DNA of 48,777 nt from an uncultured Anaerolineales bacterium. GTDB lineage: Bacteria > Chloroflexota > Anaerolineae > Anaerolineales > E44-bin32. Location of the stretch: the NCBI GenBank assembly GCA_965363875.1, contig CBDTTY010000001.1:1-48777 (forward strand), in the 5' to 3' direction. A model generated the notes under the pieces. That model searched no databases and was not told where the DNA came from. It saw nothing but the letters and a program-made list of their open reading frames with translations. Shown one piece after another: positions 6,475-48,328 of the stretch (positions are counted from its first letter, which is position 1; every line of letters starts with the position of its first letter). A program made the translations under genes and the position numbers.

Positions 6475-6483
6475 TGATATACT
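6475..6483 (+). promoter_or_regulatory. Putative extended -10 promoter (TGaTATACT) for ssrA
   Basis: TG at 6475-6476 and TATACT at 6478-6483, 15 nt upstream of the mature tmRNA 5' end. This fits a short RNase P-processed leader. Confidence 0.45.
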
Positions 6484-6497
6484 GAAATTGTATCGAA

Positions 6498-6890
6498 GGG
6501 GATGAATGGTATCGACGGGGGTGGAGCGTCACAGATTGCAAACCGAGAGGCGCCGAACTCGTTAACTCAGCGCACACACAAGTGCCAATCGCACTGACTA
6601 TGCTGCTCTACCAGTAGCCGCGTAAGCGATTACATGTAGATCAGTGCTCTCCCAGGAGAGCTCGTCTCCTCAAGCTTCGCCCTAGCAGCGCGAGGAATGG
6701 CGATCAAAATGTTGGGGCTGGCAGGATTGGATCCACGACAGTTCTGTAAGAGCGGGTTTAGGCTCGCAGTGGATAGTTGAGTTGAACGTCTGTCAATCGA
6801 CGTCATCTCAGCAAAAACAAGGATTGACTATGTTTGTAGACATCTGCTGACTGAATCCTTCGGACGCGGGTTCGAATCCCGCCATCTCCA
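6498..6890 (+). ncRNA. ssrA: tmRNA (SsrA)
   Basis: The 5' GGGGATG pairs with the 3' CATCTCC, including the G3:U70 wobble that gives alanine identity. The T-arm is GCGGGTTCGAATCCCGC and the discriminator is A at 6890; CCA is not encoded. An internal tag frame, GCC AAT CGC ACT GAC TAT GCT GCT CTA CCA GTA GCC GCG TAA (6584-6625), encodes ANRTDYAALPVAA*. smpB lies 0.9 kb upstream. Confidence 0.93.
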
Positions 6891-6892
6891 CT

Positions 6893-6918
6893 AGAAGCCC
6901 CTTACGGGGCTTCTTTTT
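6893..6918 (+). terminator. Intrinsic terminator after ssrA
   Basis: AGAAGCCCC-TTAC-GGGGCTTCT hairpin followed by a T5 run. It abuts the stop codon of the convergent FHA gene. Confidence 0.8.
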
Positions 6919-28928: not shown

Positions 28929-30527
28929 TCACCTCAAAGCAAGAAGGAGTACCGCTATGAAAGCAAACATCCAAAGCATTGCAGCTTCTCCCTCGAATAG
29001 TTCGCCAATGGATCTTGCCATGCTAAGAAATTTCCGAAGGAAGTTCCATATCAGTGAGAATATCCATTGCGGATTTATGTGAAGGAACACAGATCTCCAT
29101 CGCTTAAATCCAATCCCTTGAAGGTTGCGCAATGCAAAGAAGGCACCCACACCTACGGCAACTGCTGCTACGGTAACGATTCCCCCCTCAATACTGGAAG
29201 TCCCTTCAATCCAGACACCCAGCCCTATACTTACCAAAACCGGTAATGCCAAGCCCATGCTGTACATGACACGAACGAGACTTTCACTGGTCGGCCAAGG
29301 CTCCTCTGGTGTAAAGAAGAGATGGATCGCACCAAGAGAGAGGCTGCTTAATCCAATTATTCCTATGAACGCCTGAATCCATGCTCCCTCATTCAACGCT
29401 GATTGACCCACCATCGTGGTAATCAACCCTCCTGGGCTCCACGGCATTCCAACCAGCAGCGCCGCGGCGAAAATTGGCCAAATGCGATGTGATGGGGTAT
29501 GGACTTGAATAAGCGACAGCAATGCCCCAACAAGCAACAGTAATATACTCGTCGCGACTAGGACATCACCACTCGCAGAAGCGTTACTGCTTGCCAGGAG
29601 TCCAACGCCGGCGAGACCCATAACAAAAAAAGGCCTTGCCAAGAATCGGTCCTCCTCCAACACCCAGCGAATTCCCCCGAACAGGATGCCGATCGCCCCT
29701 GCCATTGCTAGCCACAATCTTATTGTGGGAGGTGTCCCAATTTCAAGAAATCTCGCGAGCAGCAATAGCGCAAGCGCTGGCGGGAACAAACGCAACAATG
29801 AATCTGAGCCTCTCCGGAGAGGGGAAAGAGAAGGCAAAGCTAAATCCAATGGGATCGCTCCCAACCGCAATAAAACCCCCATGAGAAATAATATCGCTGC
29901 CGGTGTAGAGAAGGATGCAGCGTTAAGGCCTGCTCCAAATCCATCGATTGAGTTAATCCAGGCGGCCGCGACTATTGATAACACACTCAGCAAGTCGACA
30001 CCGGCTCGAACAATCGCTCTGCGTATCTCGCTCACGTTTTTCGCGAAGTAAATAAAGAAAACAAAAGAGCATAAATCCAATAAAGTTAATGTAAGTGCAA
30101 CTGTGAGCAAATTGATTGCGAAAACAACCAGCATGGCCAACGCTGTGAACGCAAACCAGAAAATCCGTACGCTTGTCGAGGCGCTATCCGATCTTGTTGC
30201 AGCAGTAAGAAACATCGATAGGAGAACGGTCGAGATGCAATATGCAAGTCCCCAGCTAATTCTGTCGAGTGAAAATTCCAGAGGCGTTTGAAATAAGTTT
30301 GCTGGTTGCCAGATTGGGAAACTAACAGCATTCGGTATCGCCGCGAGCATCAACAATGACAAAAACCAGATGATTAATACGAGCAACGTGCTTACAGCCC
30401 ATTGCGTCCGAGATGGGCGATTGCGGACCAGCCATGTTGCGCCCGCAGCGAGCAGGAGAGCGCTAATTGGAATAAATAGCATACTTATCTTGTGGAGAAG
30501 TTCCTCATCTTTTTCGACGTTTAGCAT
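28929..30527 (-). CDS. Polytopic membrane protein, remote NuoL/M/N-like with degenerate signature
   Basis: 532 aa with about 14 or more TM helices. The N-terminal FSLDRISWGLAYCISTVLL resembles the family's early D-x-L-S block. Where P-x-H-x-W-L-P is expected, the sequence reads GAIPLDLALPS. Confidence 0.45.
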   Translation of the reverse strand: MLNVEKDEELLHKISMLFIPISALLLAAGATWLVRNRPSRTQWAVSTLLVLIIWFLSLLMLAAIPNAVSFPIWQPANLFQTPLEFSLDRISWGLAYCISTVLLSMFLTAATRSDSASTSVRIFWFAFTALAMLVVFAINLLTVALTLTLLDLCSFVFFIYFAKNVSEIRRAIVRAGVDLLSVLSIVAAAWINSIDGFGAGLNAASFSTPAAILFLMGVLLRLGAIPLDLALPSLSPLRRGSDSLLRLFPPALALLLLARFLEIGTPPTIRLWLAMAGAIGILFGGIRWVLEEDRFLARPFFVMGLAGVGLLASSNASASGDVLVATSILLLLVGALLSLIQVHTPSHRIWPIFAAALLVGMPWSPGGLITTMVGQSALNEGAWIQAFIGIIGLSSLSLGAIHLFFTPEEPWPTSESLVRVMYSMGLALPVLVSIGLGVWIEGTSSIEGGIVTVAAVAVGVGAFFALRNLQGIGFKRWRSVFLHINPQWIFSLIWNFLRKFLSMARSIGELFEGEAAMLWMFAFIAVLLLALR

Positions 30528-30609
30528 ACCACGGAAGCGCCCTCATGCTATACTTTTTACGCTTCTTCGCACACGCCAATCACATGTCGATGAAAAGAGA
30601 ATTAATGAA

Positions 30610-32226
30610 ATGAACAAGCGAACCGCTCCCTCCAAGGGTAACCCCTCTCCGAGCGCTGTCTCAATCGACGGCAACCATCTAACACTTGCGCACTTGGAAT
30701 CCGTCGCTCGATTCAATGCTCGAGTTGATCTGGATAAATCAGCAAGAGATCGTATTGACCAATCTGCCAAGAACCTGAAAAAGCTTGCCTCTTCCAAGAC
30801 CCCAATCTATGGTGTGAATACTGGTTACGGCATTTTTGCAGATAGGCGTCTGGATTCCTCCCAAGCTTCGAAGATCTCTGAGAATCTAGTCCTGAGCCAC
30901 GCTGTTGCGGTCGGAGATCCCTTCCCGGAGGAGGTCGTAAGAGCTGCGATTCTTATTCGAGCAAACTCTCTTGCACATGGCTACTCTGGCGTTCGAACCG
31001 AAATCATCGACGTTCTTCTTTCGTTATTAAATAAAGGTGTGACCCCTTACATTCCCTCCCAAGGCTCGTTAGGCTCATCGGGTGATCTCGCACAATTAGC
31101 TCAACTCGCCCTTGTTATTACAAATTTCGACGCTCATGTGTTTGGCGATACTGAGGTGCAAGCCTGGTTCGAAGATTGCCTACTCCCTGGTCATGAGGCT
31201 ATGAGCAAAGCTGGTATCGAGCTTATCGGACTCGGCCCTAAAGAAGGCTTGGCGCTCACCAACGGCGCATCCTTCTCTACGGCCCTTCTTGCTTTGGCAG
31301 TCATCGATTCGCGTCGATTGCTTTTCTCGAATGAAATCGCTTCGTCTATGACCCTCGATGCCCTTCTCGGCGTTTCTGCCGCGCTCGATGAACGGGTCCA
31401 CGCAGCGAGACCTTACCCCGGCCAACAAGCAGTTGCTCTAAGGATGCGCAACCTCATTTCAGGCAGCCAGCTTATCGATAGCACTTCACGAGTGCAAGAC
31501 GCCTACAGCTTACGCTGTTGCCCTCAAATCCTAGGCCCGATTTGGGATACGCTCGCTTACGCCGATACGGTCAGCAACATTGAGATGAACTCCGCAACTG
31601 ATAACCCCCTGCTATTTGGCGATGATGTTCTCTCCGGGGGTAATTTCCATGGAGAACCCGTAGGTCTTGCCGCCGATTATCTAAAAATTGCGCTCTCAGA
31701 GGCTGGATCAATATCAGAACGGCGGGTCTTCAGGCTTTTATCTGCGGATATGAATGCTAACCTCCCAGCCATGCTTATCGCAGATCGCGGCAAGATCGGT
31801 CTCTACTCGGGCTTGATGATGCTTCATTACACAGCGGGCTCGTTGGCGCTTGAAAATCAAGCTCTGGCCAATCCTAATTCAACTTCTTCTGTGCCGACTT
31901 CTGCCGGCCAGGAAGATCATAACGCTAACTCGACTACAGCCGCCAGGAATCTCCGACTCATTGTTGAGAACTTGACCCGCATCACCGCAATCGAACTCAT
32001 CTGTGCTTCCCAGGCTCTTGATTTGCGCATGAAGGAAACCCCCGGGAAATCTCCAGGCACGGGAACACTTGCTGCGCTTAGACACATTCGTAAATCTGTC
32101 GGTTTTATCGAACACGATCGACCGTACTCAGCAGACATCAATCTCGTCAGTGAAGTAATCCGCTCTGGATCGCTGCTCACCGCCCTTCACAATGCGGGGT
32201 TTGATGATTACCCCCCTGTGCTATAA
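30610..32226 (+). CDS. hutH: Histidine ammonia-lyase family protein (MIO-dependent aromatic amino acid lyase)
   Basis: YGVNTGYG, GSLGSSGDLAQL (MIO region), LALTNG, NFHGEP and AGQEDHNANS. The start is set at ATG 30610 (MNKRT...), because the ORF-track extension to 30370 overlaps the divergent membrane gene. Confidence 0.85.
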   Translation: MNKRTAPSKGNPSPSAVSIDGNHLTLAHLESVARFNARVDLDKSARDRIDQSAKNLKKLASSKTPIYGVNTGYGIFADRRLDSSQASKISENLVLSHAVAVGDPFPEEVVRAAILIRANSLAHGYSGVRTEIIDVLLSLLNKGVTPYIPSQGSLGSSGDLAQLAQLALVITNFDAHVFGDTEVQAWFEDCLLPGHEAMSKAGIELIGLGPKEGLALTNGASFSTALLALAVIDSRRLLFSNEIASSMTLDALLGVSAALDERVHAARPYPGQQAVALRMRNLISGSQLIDSTSRVQDAYSLRCCPQILGPIWDTLAYADTVSNIEMNSATDNPLLFGDDVLSGGNFHGEPVGLAADYLKIALSEAGSISERRVFRLLSADMNANLPAMLIADRGKIGLYSGLMMLHYTAGSLALENQALANPNSTSSVPTSAGQEDHNANSTTAARNLRLIVENLTRITAIELICASQALDLRMKETPGKSPGTGTLAALRHIRKSVGFIEHDRPYSADINLVSEVIRSGSLLTALHNAGFDDYPPVL

Positions 32227-32227
32227 T
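32219..32227 (+). promoter_or_regulatory. Putative extended -10 promoter (TGcTATAAT) inside the last codons of hutH
   Basis: Perfect TGnTATAAT at 32219-32227. TTGATG lies at 32201-32206 (15-nt spacer). The predicted TSS is around 32234, 1-2 nt before the small-ORF ATG. Confidence 0.5.
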
Positions 32228-32235
32228 CTGTAATT

Positions 32236-32307
32236 ATGAATGCTGGGTCCACGCACCACACACGAAACGCATCAGCCCACCATCAAGTGGGCATAGTGAG
32301 CGCGTAG
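32236..32307 (+). CDS. Candidate leader peptide MNAGSTHHTRNASAHHQVGIVSA (two His-His pairs)
   Basis: Hand translation: ATG 32236 ... CAC CAC (32254-32259) ... CAC CAT (32278-32283) ... TAG 32305-32307. No Shine-Dalgarno, but it starts about 8 nt after a perfect extended -10. It is followed by a terminator and then hisS. Confidence 0.35.
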   Translation: MNAGSTHHTRNASAHHQVGIVSA

Positions 32308-32343
32308 ACCCACCCGCTCTGATAAGAAGGGATCGTTGATAAA

Positions 32344-32376
32344 GACGGCGTGGGCTGGGCTCAGGTCGTCTTTTTT
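32344..32376 (+). terminator. Intrinsic terminator/attenuator hairpin upstream of hisS
   Basis: GACGGCGTGGGC-TGG-GCTCAGGTCGTC gives 11 pairs (two G:U, one mismatch) followed by T6 at 32371-32376. It ends 15 nt before the hisS ATG, and the GGAGG Shine-Dalgarno (32382-32386) lies after it. Confidence 0.6.
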
Positions 32377-32391
32377 GTAATGGAGGCATTA

Positions 32392-33660
32392 ATGCCAATA
32401 ATTCAACCGGTTCGAGGCACGCGCGATTTCTACCCAGAGGATATGGCTTTTCGCCAGTGGCTCAATAATCAGATCCGCGAGGCATCCTCGCAATTTGGCT
32501 ATCAGGAATTCGACGGCCCCTTTCTGGAGCGCTTGGAACTCTATGCCGCTAAATCCGGTGATGAGCTCGTTAAAGAACAGTCTTACGTATTTCCCGATCG
32601 AAGCGGTTCTATGATCGCTCTCCGCCCTGAACTCACTCCATCCCTTGCACGTATGGTGGCGCAGCGCGGTAAAGGTCTTACGCTGCCTCTTCGCTGGTGG
32701 TCTTTTGGACCTTTTTGGCGATATGAGCGAAAGCAGAAAGGTCGGTCTCGGGAATTCTTCCAGTGGAATATCGACCTTATCGGCGTCAGTACCCCTGAAG
32801 CGGATGCCGAGCTAGTTGCGGTAGCAGCGACACTCTTTCGCAATGTTGGGCTGACAGCGGATATGATCCGCATTAAAGTGAACAACCGGCGCCTTGCAGA
32901 GAAACAGCTCGACAAAATCGGTATCCAGGGCGAGTTGCTGCCAATAACTTTTCGTCTTATCGATCGTCAAGATCGCATGGCACCAGAGGCATGGAAATCT
33001 TATGCGCTCGAAAGCGGATTAAACGAAGATCAATTTACTGGCCTCGTGAAGATGCTCGAGGATCTTGATGCCTGGAAATCTTCACCGGAAATGCTTCAAT
33101 ACTTCAAAGCCGCCGAAGCGCTCGGAGTGGATGAATATCTAGACTATGATCCAACCATAATCCGGGGACTTGACTACTACACTGGAACAGTTTACGAGGC
33201 CAGGGACGTCAAAGGCAATCATCGGTCGATCCTCGGCGGTGGTCGCTACGACGATCTTGTCTCCATTGTTGGTGGCAACCCGATCCCTGGGACGGGCTTC
33301 GCGATGGGAGATGTCGTATTCGGATTGGTCCTGGACGAAAACGGGATTAAACCTGATCTACGCGTGAGTCCTACGGACATCTTGATCACAACTTTTGAAG
33401 AGGCCGGTGAGAGCGCTTCTATTCAAATCGCTGCAGAGCTGCGCGAAGCTGGCTATCGTGTCGAGTGGTACCCGCAACCCGTACGCCTCCAACGGCAGCT
33501 AAAGTACGCAGATCGCAATGAAATCCCGCTGGTTGTAATTATTGGCCCCGATGAAATGGAGGCAGATAAAGTCTCTTTGAAGGATATGGTCTCTGGCGAG
33601 CAAGATACCTTTTCTCGTAGCGATCTTCTAGCACGGATAAAAGCCCGGTTGTCTGGGTAA
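32392..33660 (+). CDS. hisS: Histidine--tRNA ligase
   Basis: MPIIQPVRGTRDFYPEDM..., class II motifs LRPELTPSLARM, FGPFWRYERKQKGRSREFFQWN and GGGRYDDL. ATG 32392 with GGAGG 5 nt upstream is preferred over the ORF-track start at 32350, which lies inside the terminator. Confidence 0.93.
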   Translation: MPIIQPVRGTRDFYPEDMAFRQWLNNQIREASSQFGYQEFDGPFLERLELYAAKSGDELVKEQSYVFPDRSGSMIALRPELTPSLARMVAQRGKGLTLPLRWWSFGPFWRYERKQKGRSREFFQWNIDLIGVSTPEADAELVAVAATLFRNVGLTADMIRIKVNNRRLAEKQLDKIGIQGELLPITFRLIDRQDRMAPEAWKSYALESGLNEDQFTGLVKMLEDLDAWKSSPEMLQYFKAAEALGVDEYLDYDPTIIRGLDYYTGTVYEARDVKGNHRSILGGGRYDDLVSIVGGNPIPGTGFAMGDVVFGLVLDENGIKPDLRVSPTDILITTFEEAGESASIQIAAELREAGYRVEWYPQPVRLQRQLKYADRNEIPLVVIIGPDEMEADKVSLKDMVSGEQDTFSRSDLLARIKARLSG

Positions 33661-33694
33661 GTACGTTTCTTTTGTGGCTCGATACCTGCCTTCG

Positions 33695-33703
33695 TGTTAG
33701 AAT
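33695..33703 (+). promoter_or_regulatory. Putative extended -10 (TGtTAGAAT) upstream of tRNA-His
   Basis: TGTTAGAAT at 33695-33703, about 60 nt upstream of the tRNA 5' end. Confidence 0.35.
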
Positions 33704-33762
33704 AACGCTCGCATAAGTTGGGTGTCTTTCGTTTACTTTTTCGTGAAGATGCAGGTCAGCAT

Positions 33763-33835
33763 GGCGAGGGTAGTTCAGTGGCAGAACGCGCGCCTGTGGA
33801 GCGCGATGTCGCGGGTTCGAATCCCGTCCCTCGCC
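33763..33835 (+). tRNA. tRNA-His (anticodon GTG)
   Basis: Hand-folded cloverleaf. Acceptor stem GCGAGGG/CCCTCGC, with an encoded extra G-1 (33763) opposite discriminator C73 (33835), the hallmark of bacterial tRNA-His. D-arm GTTC/GAAC. Anticodon stem CGCGC/GCGCG with loop CTGTGGA (GTG at 33796-33798). T-arm GCGGG-TTCGAAT-CCCGT. CCA is not encoded. Confidence 0.93.
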
Positions 33836-33919
33836 CTGTAATAACTCCAATAGGAAAATTTTAGCTTGTCCTTTTGTGGATTTAGTTATGACCTGGAACC
33901 CTTCAGTCACCAATTGCAG

Positions 33920-33942
33920 AACGCCCGCCAGGGCGTTTTTTT
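33920..33942 (+). terminator. Intrinsic terminator downstream of tRNA-His
   Basis: AACGCCC-GCCA-GGGCGTT hairpin followed by a T7 run. Confidence 0.75.
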
Positions 33943-33947
33943 GAAGA

Positions 33948-34991
33948 TTAGCGAGCTATGCCGGTTATGGGATCCACCCCGATGTCGATGTAGCCATTGA
34001 TAAGATCTTGCAGTACCTCCTGCACCCACGCTTCTCGTCCAGGCGTCAATCGCTCAGAGTTGATATCCTCGATGATAATCGGCATGGACACAGTTCCTCC
34101 GCCATCGCCCATCCAAACGTTATCCCAGATTTCTGCGATTGCCAGTTCAGGTGCAGCCCGCACCGTCGCGATCCATTTCGCTCCAAGATCATCTCCTGGT
34201 GACGTGCCGCCAATATAGCTCAAATCTGGACCTTCGAGCATTTCCGCCGATGCTGTTCCGCTCAATTCAGGAGACAAGAAGATCGTATCCACATCCAGGT
34301 TAGCTAGTGTATCGATTGCATCCTGAACTGCTGAAACATCAGATGAAGATGCCTCAACGCCAAGCGGATATGAATGGAAAGGTGGATAAGCTTGTCGGCA
34401 CAATCCACAATAGAACTTCACCCCATTTTGAAACGCTAAATTACTAGCCTGTTCTTCCCCGGAGTTCAGCATTGACACAGCACCTACCCGCCAATCAGGT
34501 GTCACTACAGCTGATATAACACCGGCGATGAAGCCAACGTGATCTGAACCCATACCGTCTGGACCGATCCTCGTTAGATTGTCTGCCTCGCTTAAGCCAT
34601 GGATCCCAATAGCCACAAACTGCACCGCTGGATGTCGCGCCACCAAGTCATTTAATCCCTGATCAGGTGGAAGGTAAAAAACAACCTTTGCGTTCTGCTC
34701 GAGATCACTGTCAGAGATTTCAGCCAGGACGATAAATTCACTTCCTTCAGCTGCAGAGAGCGTTGTGATGAGGTCTTCCACTCTGGAAGTCATCCTCTCT
34801 GAGACCTCACCTCCGCTAACTAGATAGACCAGACCAGGCGCAGCCGTGGGCGATGCTGTTGGTATGATCGGCCGTTCCAGTGTGGGCGTTACTGGAGCCT
34901 GCCCATTGTCTCCTGCCCCGCCACAAGCGGTAAGCAGAATAAGAATTCCAAGCAAGGTAATTTTTAGTGTGTGATTGTTAGCGAATCGCAT
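33948..34991 (-). CDS. Lipoprotein, periplasmic-binding-protein-like (possibly BMP/PnrA family)
   Basis: 347 aa. Lipobox ILLTAC-GG after a hydrophobic signal. A P/T-rich linker is followed by an alpha/beta-looking body with HVGFIAGVISAVV. The family assignment is tentative. Confidence 0.5.
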   Translation of the reverse strand: MRFANNHTLKITLLGILILLTACGGAGDNGQAPVTPTLERPIIPTASPTAAPGLVYLVSGGEVSERMTSRVEDLITTLSAAEGSEFIVLAEISDSDLEQNAKVVFYLPPDQGLNDLVARHPAVQFVAIGIHGLSEADNLTRIGPDGMGSDHVGFIAGVISAVVTPDWRVGAVSMLNSGEEQASNLAFQNGVKFYCGLCRQAYPPFHSYPLGVEASSSDVSAVQDAIDTLANLDVDTIFLSPELSGTASAEMLEGPDLSYIGGTSPGDDLGAKWIATVRAAPELAIAEIWDNVWMGDGGGTVSMPIIIEDINSERLTPGREAWVQEVLQDLINGYIDIGVDPITGIAR

Positions 34992-46458: not shown

Positions 46459-46467
46459 TGATAGAAT
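46459..46467 (+). promoter_or_regulatory. Putative extended -10 (TGaTAGAAT) 6 nt upstream of the mnmA ATG
   Basis: TGATAGAAT at 46459-46467, ATG at 46474, no Shine-Dalgarno. Confidence 0.4.
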
Positions 46468-46473
46468 CCAACA

Positions 46474-47544
46474 ATGACTCCACAAAACAATACAGTTGCC
46501 ATAGCGATGAGTGGGGGTGTCGATAGCTCGGTTGCAGCCGCCCTTCTTGTTGAGCAAGGTTTCGATGTCTTCGGCGTAATGCTCCGCCTTTGGTCTGCTG
46601 GACCAGAGACAAGCAACCGATGTTGCTCCCCGGAAGATGTCTCCCTTGCCAGGCGAGTGGCGAGTCAACTCGACATACCCTTCCACACCCTGGATGTCAA
46701 AGACACGTTTAAGAGAGAGGTTGTCGATCCTTTTATTGATGACTATGCGCAAGGAAGAACACCGAACCCCTGTATGCGATGTAATCGAATAATCCGCTGG
46801 GGCTTCCTTCTAGAAAGCGTCGTCGCAATGGGCGCAAGTCGCCTGGCAACGGGTCACTACGCACGGATACACCATGGAGGAGATCGCTATCACTTATTCC
46901 GAGCTAAGGATAAAAACAAGGATCAAACATACGTTCTCAGCGTTCTGCAGCAACATCAACTCGCACGCACTATATTCCCCCTGGGCGATATCAACAAAAA
47001 CAAAGTTCGTGAACAAGCTGCAAAACTCAATCTCCCAATCGCTGACCGGGCCGAGAGCCAGGACCTATGTTTCGTGGGCGACCAGGATTATCGAGAATTC
47101 CTCTCCGACCAGGGAATTCAACTATCCCCCCCGGGTCCCATTCTCGATGAGAAAGGTGAAATTCTCGGTGAGCATTCGGGTTTAGCAAATTACACAATCG
47201 GGCAGCGCAAAGGCATCGGAGTTTCGAAATCGTTTCCACTCTATGTAATAAACAAGAATATGGGGGATAATGTTCTCGTCGTCGGTCCCAAGGACAGACT
47301 CGGCCGTACGAGCTTCAATATCGGGCAGGCAAATTGGATTTCTGGCTCTCCGCCTAAAGACGGCAGCCCCTTACTTGTAAGAGTGCGATATAAGGCAGAG
47401 GAAGTCGGCGCAACCCTTCGTGCCCTTGATCATGCTCATGCAGAAATCCAACTTCTTAAACCGCTCCCTGACGTAACCCCCGGGCAGTACGCAGTGTTTT
47501 ACGAGGGGGAAGAATGCCTAGGAGGAGGGATAATCCTTCCATGA
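46474..47544 (+). CDS. mnmA: tRNA-specific 2-thiouridylase MnmA
   Basis: 356 aa. PP-loop VAIAMSGGVDSSVAA, then CCS...D, NPCMRCN, ATGHYAR and KDQTYVL. Confidence 0.94.
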   Translation: MTPQNNTVAIAMSGGVDSSVAAALLVEQGFDVFGVMLRLWSAGPETSNRCCSPEDVSLARRVASQLDIPFHTLDVKDTFKREVVDPFIDDYAQGRTPNPCMRCNRIIRWGFLLESVVAMGASRLATGHYARIHHGGDRYHLFRAKDKNKDQTYVLSVLQQHQLARTIFPLGDINKNKVREQAAKLNLPIADRAESQDLCFVGDQDYREFLSDQGIQLSPPGPILDEKGEILGEHSGLANYTIGQRKGIGVSKSFPLYVINKNMGDNVLVVGPKDRLGRTSFNIGQANWISGSPPKDGSPLLVRVRYKAEEVGATLRALDHAHAEIQLLKPLPDVTPGQYAVFYEGEECLGGGIILP

Positions 47545-47855: not shown

Positions 47856-47864
47856 TGTTATAAT
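47856..47864 (+). promoter_or_regulatory. Putative extended -10 (TGtTATAAT) 8 nt upstream of ATG 47873
   Basis: Perfect TGTTATAAT, with no Shine-Dalgarno before the ATG. Confidence 0.45.
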
Positions 47865-47872
47865 CGACATCA

Positions 47873-48328
47873 ATGACTGAAAAAGATACTTTGACACCAT
47901 CAACTGACACATCTTCGCCCGTTGAGGCCACCCCTTCGGGCGATAAGATTCCCACGATATGGATCGTACTGGGAGTGGTGATTGTTCTTTTGCTTATCGC
48001 AGGAATTATTGTCGCTGCGACCGTAATGGTTCAAAATCCCGCACAAACTGAAACCTTTCGCGACATTATGATAATTTTTATGGCCTTCGAATCTCTAATC
48101 ATCGGCCTAGCACTTATTATCATGCTTGTTCAGCTAGCCCGCCTGACGAACCTCCTTCAATACGAGATCAGGCCGATACTCGAAGCCACAAACGAGACAG
48201 TCGGTTCGTTGCGCGGAACTACTAAATTTCTCAGCGATAACCTTGTTGCACCTGTTGTCAAAGCGAACAGCTCATTCGCGGCGCTAAGACGCGCAATCGA
48301 GTTGTTTGACTTTCGCCGCCCTAAGTAA
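47873..48328 (+). CDS. Membrane protein, possibly DUF948/YtxG-like
   Basis: 151 aa. Two TM helices followed by an amphipathic helical tail. It sits immediately upstream of a YtxH-like gene, as in Firmicutes ytxG-ytxH. The family call is tentative. Confidence 0.45.
   Translation: MTEKDTLTPSTDTSSPVEATPSGDKIPTIWIVLGVVIVLLLIAGIIVAATVMVQNPAQTETFRDIMIIFMAFESLIIGLALIIMLVQLARLTNLLQYEIRPILEATNETVGSLRGTTKFLSDNLVAPVVKANSSFAALRRAIELFDFRRPK

Follow-up and report, generated by a model that had tools for sequence, protein, structure and literature searches.

How might a bacterium of the Chloroflexota match production of its histidine–tRNA ligase to the supply of charged tRNA-His? The question is raised by the 165-nt spacer that separates hutH from hisS in a 48,777-nt stretch of DNA, here called the window, from an uncultured Anaerolineales bacterium (contig CBDTTY010000001.1 of assembly GCA_965363875.1, forward strand). 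An initial annotation of this spacer had proposed a leader-peptide attenuator built around histidine codons, and the computational analysis reported here predicts that the element is probably a His-responsive, ribosome-mediated transcription attenuator that couples hisS to charged tRNA-His supply. The parts of such an attenuator are present and conserved, His codons are enriched in the frame of its short open reading frame (ORF), terminator and antiterminator are mutually exclusive, and the antiterminator strand lies next to the stop codon of the ORF.

The leader ORF and its histidine codons

The regulated gene, hisS (32392–33660; like the leader features described below, on the plus strand), encodes a histidine–tRNA ligase of 422 aa with the Pfam domains tRNA-synt_His and HGTP_anticodon. 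Its product scores 351.6 bits on the TIGR00442 equivalog model (cut-off 286.75) and falls below the hisZ cut-off. The coding sequence begins at ATG 32392, behind a GGAGG Shine-Dalgarno (32382–32386) that lies 3′ of the terminator and is kept in an alignment of 7 sequences from the window clade (A1). An alternative in-frame ATG is found at 32380; in relatives, a stop codon interrupts the frame from that position. The gene upstream, hutH, matches Pfam Lyase_aromatic and passes the NCBIfam histidine ammonia-lyase model NF006871. It ends at 32226, with its TAA inside TGCTATAAT, an extended −10 element read from the sequence at 32219–32227 and thus overlapping the hutH stop codon. The promoter element, the length of the spacer and the start signals of hisS all match the initial annotation of the sequence. 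Both the activity of TGCTATAAT as a promoter and the position of the transcription start are predictions from this sequence.

Eight nucleotides past the −10 box begins a leader ORF of 23 codons, MNAGSTHHTRNASAHHQVGIVSA (32236–32307), which has no Shine-Dalgarno. Four of the 23 codons specify His, arranged in two adjacent pairs, codons 7–8 (CAC CAC, 32254–32259) and codons 15–16 (CAC CAT, 32278–32283); coordinates and translation agree with those first proposed. Within the clade alignment, codons 8 and 16 are invariantly His, codon 7 is His in 4 of the 7 members, and codon 15 in 6 of the 7. A second small ORF overlaps the leader ORF in another frame (MLGPRTTHETHQPTIKWA, 32240–32296). It is confined to the window and is probably fortuitous, because its ATG is missing in the closest relatives.

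The His content of related leaders (the collection of loci is described below) was assessed blind, by taking from each leader the first ORF past the box that opens with ATG and has 9 or more codons, irrespective of what it encodes. His was the most frequent residue in these ORFs, at 16% of 494. Across 15 non-redundant leaders, CAY triplets numbered 48 in the ORF frame vs. 6 and 17 in the other two frames, and shuffled ORFs contained 12.4 ± 3.3 in-frame CAY triplets, with 0 of 2000 shuffles reaching 48. Such a frame bias is the prediction of a translated regulatory ORF and not of an untranslated RNA motif. A more permissive scan, which took the ORF with most His within 420 nt, flagged 86 of 161 loci and was discarded as unspecific; it was replaced by ORFs defined by the −10 box, together with curation.

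The frame bias bears directly on an alternative in which the leader senses a signal other than the translating ribosome, whether the CCCA end of uncharged tRNA-His (as in a minimal T-box-like element), HisRS or a small molecule, and in which the His codons are incidental to pairing boxes rich in CAC and CCCAC. Part of the CAC content does fall within pairing boxes, and some related long hisS leaders carry a terminator but no His ORF. In addition, the terminator 5′ arm includes UGGG as part of its GUGGG and, judged from the sequence and from general knowledge of T-boxes, these four bases could bind the tRNA-His 3′ end, CCCA, in the manner of His T-boxes. However, an untranslated RNA has no need of CAY triplets biased to one frame, and runs such as HHHHHH lie outside any pairing box. 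Other clades have GCCUGC or GCUCAC in place of CCCA and retain the pairing, which also leaves mimicry of the tRNA-His 3′ end by the CCCAC boxes unsupported, and a Stem I-like platform is absent from the leader, which is about 140 nt long. Searches against Rfam returned no match in the window leader to T-box (RF00230), His_leader (RF00514) or any other family, even at E ≤ 10, and no T-box or His_leader match at the gathering threshold in 20 related loci. The T-box match that the initial annotation had named as grounds for reassigning the mechanism was therefore not found, and a sensor independent of the ribosome is quite unlikely.

Initiation on the leader ORF would have to proceed without a Shine-Dalgarno. 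In 30 related leaders the ATG lies 6–10 nt past the −10 box and the ORF likewise has no Shine-Dalgarno, an arrangement expected of a leaderless sensory short ORF whose transcript is predicted to start at or near the ATG. Leaderless initiation, as first proposed for this ORF, is plausible because another gene in the same window, mnmA (46474–47544), has the same design: in its start region (46459–46476), TGATAGAAT is followed after 6 nt by ATG, with no Shine-Dalgarno. The identity of mnmA is confirmed by Pfam, with the domain beginning at residue 7. A second protein gene (region 47856–47875) begins 8 nt past a TGnTAnAAT box, also without a Shine-Dalgarno, and the two genes suggest that this organism routinely uses leaderless mRNAs.

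Conserved layout and alternative RNA pairings

The comparison set comprised 160 related hisS loci, drawn in equal parts from GTDB species genomes (80) and metagenomes (80). HisRS relatives assign the window to the Anaerolineales, and the closest genomes are 88–93% identical to it in HisRS. At least 45 of the ~160 Anaerolineae hisS loci, falling into 17 leader-sequence clusters (70% identity), share the order TGnTAnAAT (140–230 nt 5′ of hisS), ATG, ORF, stop codon, C-rich box, terminator, Shine-Dalgarno and hisS. Across the 17 clusters the leaders repeat one set of parts, a small ORF with in-frame His codons, a post-stop box and a terminator, bearing out the conservation that the initial annotation had made the test of its proposal. 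The ATG lies 6–10 nt past the box in most leaders and 20–35 nt past it in a few clades, and the ORFs span 10–30 codons with 2–7 His. The TGnTAnAAT box recurs independently of the upstream gene, and the whole layout is retained with hutH or another gene in that position.

The encoded peptides of different clusters, such as MNTPIGTTNHHHHHHAHQPMS, MNTQTVRPIHHHFHAHHHLGYCRLGRV, MNIHLLIHIHHHGKIMGI, MNHHLQHTHCL and MFVINCAHHHASSFHG, are unrelated save for their His content. This divergence is difficult to square with a functional His-rich micropeptide, for instance a metal-binding one, that is co-transcribed with hisS by chance. His-rich peptides can bind metals and the position of the ORF is conserved, but sequence and length (10–30 residues) vary between clusters, with only the His content and the RNA pairing segments kept, and a terminator stands between the ORF and hisS in nearly all curated loci. 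We regard a micropeptide function as extremely improbable. At the nucleotide level, the window leader is 84–93% identical to those of six close relatives, vs. 47–72% at four-fold degenerate sites of the adjacent hisS; since leader identity lies so far above that of these sites, the leader is, by this sequence measure, under purifying selection.

Folding of the whole window leader gave a z-score of −3.6, and 0 of 200 shuffles were as stable. In the minimum-free-energy structure, region 1 (32244–32254), which has the first His pair at its 3′ edge, forms the 5′ strand of a helix that would sequester the post-stop box, acting as an anti-antiterminator. Its partner, region 2 (32302–32316), comprises the end of the ORF, TAG 32305–32307 and the box ACCCACCCG, and can pair either with region 1 or, as the antiterminator strand, with the terminator 5′ arm. 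The ORF-enclosing helix of regions 1 and 2 (32244–32254 with 32302–32312), already recognized in the initial annotation, is 100% paired in the 7 clade sequences, both single changes being wobble-compatible. The intrinsic terminator (32341–32376) consists of a hairpin with arms AAAGACGGCGTGGGC and GCTCAGGTCGTCTTT (32341–32373, −19.6 kcal/mol) and a T6 tract (32371–32376), as had been proposed; its inner stem was detected by a consensus scan, and G-U pairs and a bulge make the hairpin imperfect.

Two further hairpins lie between these elements. The 6-bp internal hairpin GCCCAC/GTGGGC inside the ORF (32275–32292, −11.4 kcal/mol) stands at the coordinates first given, and its 5′ strand holds the second His pair, which overlaps the CCCAC at 32276–32280; the GTGGG at 32287–32291 lies in the other strand. 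The pairing is backed by one compensatory change from G-C to A-U, in locus L004, and L002 shows a change from A-U to G-U. The hairpin may act as an RNA polymerase pause hairpin, which is speculation, or as an alternative pairing partner. A small hairpin of the minimum-free-energy structure lies between box and terminator (32313–32331), its CCC overlapping the box, and is 97.6% paired in the clade without informative variation. Taken together, the region 1:2 helix, the internal hairpin, the small hairpin and the terminator are 98.8% paired in the 7 clade sequences, a set of low power, with the single compensatory change in L004 and one unpaired cell each in the second, third and fourth of these helices.

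The antiterminator competes with the terminator for the same arm. In the window it joins CCCAC 32309–32313 to GTGGG 32350–32354 and adds CCG with CGG, so that the box at 32308–32316 pairs with 32346–32354, and the duplex of region 2 with the terminator 5′ arm has a predicted energy of −16.5 kcal/mol. The antiterminator strand begins 1 nt past TAG, and the last His codon lies 24 nt 5′ of the box.

These pairings extend beyond the window clade. Of 42 curated loci searched automatically, 40 have a hairpin and a T-rich tail between ORF and hisS; the exceptions are L025, where the assembly is broken, and L018, where the T run after the hairpin is interrupted. A cross-clade alignment (A2) of 23 leaders, taken from different clusters, shows 87.4% pairing and 3 compensatory pairs in the terminator helix; the antiterminator helix is paired in 84.6% of cells vs. 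36–45% in slid controls, with 14 C-to-U changes opposite G. At one antiterminator pair, columns 20–60, 15 sequences have A-U and 4 have G-C; the column is bulged in the terminator, and its covariation therefore supports the antiterminator specifically. The CCCAC:GTGGG pairing first proposed from the window alone has thus gained cross-clade conservation and one compensatory pair. When each leader was searched, with no position presupposed, for the 14-nt stretch that best binds the 5′ arm, 15 of 17 clusters placed it within −16 to +8 nt of the stop-codon end (chance 0.30, binomial p ~1e-6).

These comparisons also weigh on the view that nothing is regulated here, the hairpin and T6 being the terminator of hutH, the box fortuitous or constitutive and the small ORF a product of chance. 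The element does lie directly 3′ of hutH, and a consensus promoter scan did not call TGCTATAAT a promoter, because no good −35 element accompanies it. Yet the order and spacing of box, ORF and terminator are kept where the upstream gene is not hutH, the leader is conserved far beyond neutral sites, and both the in-frame His enrichment and the stop-adjacent pairing of box with terminator are highly non-random, making the absence of regulation highly improbable.

Many of the collected loci, including all those of cultured Anaerolinea and Bellilinea species, lack a leader, with the −10 box just 30–60 nt 5′ of hisS. A His leader is absent from every cultured isolate in the collection, Bellilinea and two Anaerolinea species being short-leadered. 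Further loci (L005/L084/L085, L006/L088, L010/L021, L011, L093, L095, L112 and L117) have a TGCTATAAT box and a long leader, with the box ~150–190 nt 5′ of hisS; they yielded no convincing His-rich ORF and no Rfam match, and the long leaders of L006/L088 and L010/L021 contain clear terminator-like hairpins.

A candidate switch between terminator and antiterminator

The window leader combines a promoter-proximal short ORF, enrichment of the cognate codon, an intrinsic terminator and an antiterminator that uses one terminator arm. Judged by strand positions, a ribosome at the stop codon would block the antiterminator, and one at the regulatory codons would not. We infer from this arrangement that ribosomes stall at the His codons, as well as the order in which the helices switch and the roles of the second His pair and the internal hairpin.

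In the proposed mechanism, RNA would begin a few nucleotides past TGCTATAAT, at or beside the AUG, so that no Shine-Dalgarno would be needed for a ribosome to enter at the 5′ end. With ample His-tRNA-His, this ribosome would reach TAG 32305 and its footprint would cover the box ACCCACCCG; after ribosome release, or without translation, region 1 would hold the box instead. With the box covered or held, the G-rich 5′ arm would be free for the 3′ arm, and polymerase would stop at T6 (32371–32376). When His-tRNA-His is scarce, the ribosome would stall on His codons, and a stall at codons 7–8 would cover region 1. The exposed box could then pair with GTGGG and CGG of the 5′ arm once this is made, no terminator would form, and transcription would read through into hisS. 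Lower charging of tRNA-His would by this logic lead to more HisRS, as in His T-boxes and pheST. Because the −10 box of hisS overlaps the hutH stop codon, RNA reading through from hutH would carry the leader ORF internally, without a Shine-Dalgarno, and would probably end at the attenuator.

Nascent transcripts were folded for 41 loci with the RNA ended at the terminator loop and ribosome masks at His or stop codons. In the window leader, a ribosome masking His7 left 32306–32320 paired with 32343–32356, and without a ribosome regions 1 and 2 paired, leaving the terminator 5′ arm free. A ribosome placed at the second His pair melted the internal hairpin in the model.

Several results weigh against the attenuator as proposed. 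Equilibrium folds with the same masks did not discriminate between His and stop codons, the terminator being too stable, and in the nascent folds a His stall raised 5′-arm occupancy only slightly over a ribosome at the stop codon (25 of 41 loci, Wilcoxon p = 0.08). The window leader offers the 5′ arm further partners in region 1 and in the GCCCAC inside the ORF, so that the switch is not uniquely defined, and a ribosome modelled at His15 or His16 still lets regions 1 and 2 pair around it. The antiterminator helix was defined and tested on the same sequences, with compensatory change in one pair only. Most Anaerolineaceae hisS genes are short-leadered and have no attenuator, and some long leaders have no His ORF. 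Finally, the L106 leader has 1 His codon, and others, e.g., L012, L015, L020 and L098, have 2.

A different doubt concerns the output. Ribosome sensing could be real and act through access of Rho, mRNA stability or translation of hisS, rather than through intrinsic termination. The mycobacterial leaderless Cys-rich short ORFs, which act via sequestration of the ribosome-binding site (bioRxiv 10.1101/834739), provide a precedent, and the G-U pairs and bulge of the window terminator would fit such a scheme. A G+C-rich hairpin followed by a U tract is nevertheless found in 40 of the 42 His-leader loci, and the alternative pairing aims specifically at the terminator 5′ arm. No predicted helix includes the hisS Shine-Dalgarno, whose GGAGG is unpaired in all predicted folds and hence not sequestered. 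An output other than intrinsic termination is thus very unlikely, and transcription attenuation at the T6 terminator is the reading that we carry forward.

Neighbouring genes, related systems and significance

hutH (histidine degradation), hisS and a tRNA-His gene are contiguous in the window (30370–33836) clade and in L007–L009. The longest hutH ORF starts at 30370, yet the enzyme domain begins only at about residue 104; the true start is likely ATG 30610, and the NCBIfam model aligns from residue 16 of that version. A TGCTATACT box lies 5′ of this likely start, at 30546–30554, and a 9-codon ORF encoding MSMKRELMK (30584–30613) overlaps it in an ATGA arrangement. The tRNA-His(GTG) gene occupies 33764–33836, with CCA not encoded. 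In 53 of 60 loci scanned, leader present or not, tRNA-His(GTG) lies 30–120 nt 3′ of hisS on the same strand, and it has a TGnTAGAAT box of its own in the spacer (33695–33703 in the window). Owing to this box, tRNA-His is a conserved neighbour and not clearly within the attenuated transcript, and the idea that the attenuator also drives tRNA-His is weakened. A G+C-rich inverted repeat with T7 (gcccgccagggcgttttttt, 33921–33945) follows tRNA-His and precedes a convergent minus-strand gene (33948–34991); it is probably a shared terminator. Elsewhere in the window, a tmRNA gene (6498–6893) encodes the tag peptide ANRTDYAALPVAA, with a TGATATACT box at 6475.

A scan for other leaders with the order box, ATG, short ORF and terminator returned only hisS leaders in ~1 Mb of hisS-centred loci. 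Its non-hisS candidates were false ORFs, namely tRNA-His genes behind their own promoters. This result is neutral towards two broader ideas, which we consider unlikely: that the hisS leader is part of a Chloroflexota-specific set of leaderless sensory ORFs replacing T-boxes on several synthetase and amino-acid genes and, further, that its CCCA boxes read the 3′ end of uncharged tRNA-His, making a hybrid ribosome/tRNA sensor.

Attenuators with His-codon leaders are classical for enterobacterial his operons (hisL; RF00514). The hisS element resembles the enterobacterial leader in its short ORF with clustered His codons, its alternative terminator and antiterminator hairpins, and its predicted readthrough at scarce His-tRNA-His. 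It differs in failing to match the RF00514 model, in controlling a synthetase and not a biosynthetic operon, in having its His codons as 2+2 and not as a run of 7, and in its leaderless-type start and its occurrence in Chloroflexota. In Firmicutes, hisS is controlled by a T-box riboswitch (RF00230). This riboswitch shares with the proposed attenuator its gene, its signal (tRNA-His charging) and an output through terminator and antiterminator, but the T-box binds tRNA directly, whereas a translating ribosome would be the sensor in the window leader.

The initial annotation had called a peptide attenuator on hisS unusual, and it is less so than thought. The pheST attenuator of gamma-proteobacteria, with its pheM leader, is a leader-peptide attenuator on a synthetase gene. 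Leader-peptide attenuators have also been predicted for trpS and leuS in Streptomyces (PMC1262725). Compared by description, these share with the hisS element the position before an aminoacyl-tRNA synthetase gene and the use of cognate codons, and differ from it in amino acid, phylum and sequence. In the Bacillus cereus group, a His leader peptide has been predicted upstream of a hisS paralog (hisS*) and of hisZ (Naville & Gautheret 2010, PMC2965389), and His leaders have been predicted upstream of the his operons of some Firmicutes (PMC9413887). Like the hisS element, these are computational predictions outside the Proteobacteria that combine a His-codon ORF with a terminator. By description, the canonical hisS of Bacillus keeps a T-box and the leader sits on the paralog and hisZ; unlike that paralog, the window gene scores as a true hisS on the equivalog model and adjoins tRNA-His. 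A full-text search found no report of a Chloroflexi hisS leader within the literature searched.

The predicted leaderless start has its nearest parallel in the mycobacterial polycysteine short ORF attenuators, in which a sensory ORF at the transcript 5′ end relieves sequestration of the ribosome-binding site (bioRxiv 10.1101/834739). Both systems have a sensory short ORF at a leaderless 5′ end, predicted in the case of hisS, and stalling at cognate codons. The mycobacterial ORFs exert translational control, however, whereas the output of the hisS element would be an intrinsic terminator with the Shine-Dalgarno left free.

The family, the phylum and the target gene are new; the mechanism is a textbook one, and attenuators on synthetase genes were already known or predicted. 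The predicted attenuator would thus extend leader-peptide attenuation to the Chloroflexota, a phylum that has been little studied, a gain in breadth and not in principle. It would represent another independent solution for sensing tRNA-His charging at hisS, with the ribosome as sensor here and the T-box in Firmicutes. The spacing between −10 box and ATG that the leader shares with mnmA provides indirect evidence for leaderless translation in these organisms. For annotators, the conserved small ORF and its predicted attenuator are features that can be recognized in many metagenome-assembled genomes of the Anaerolineales.

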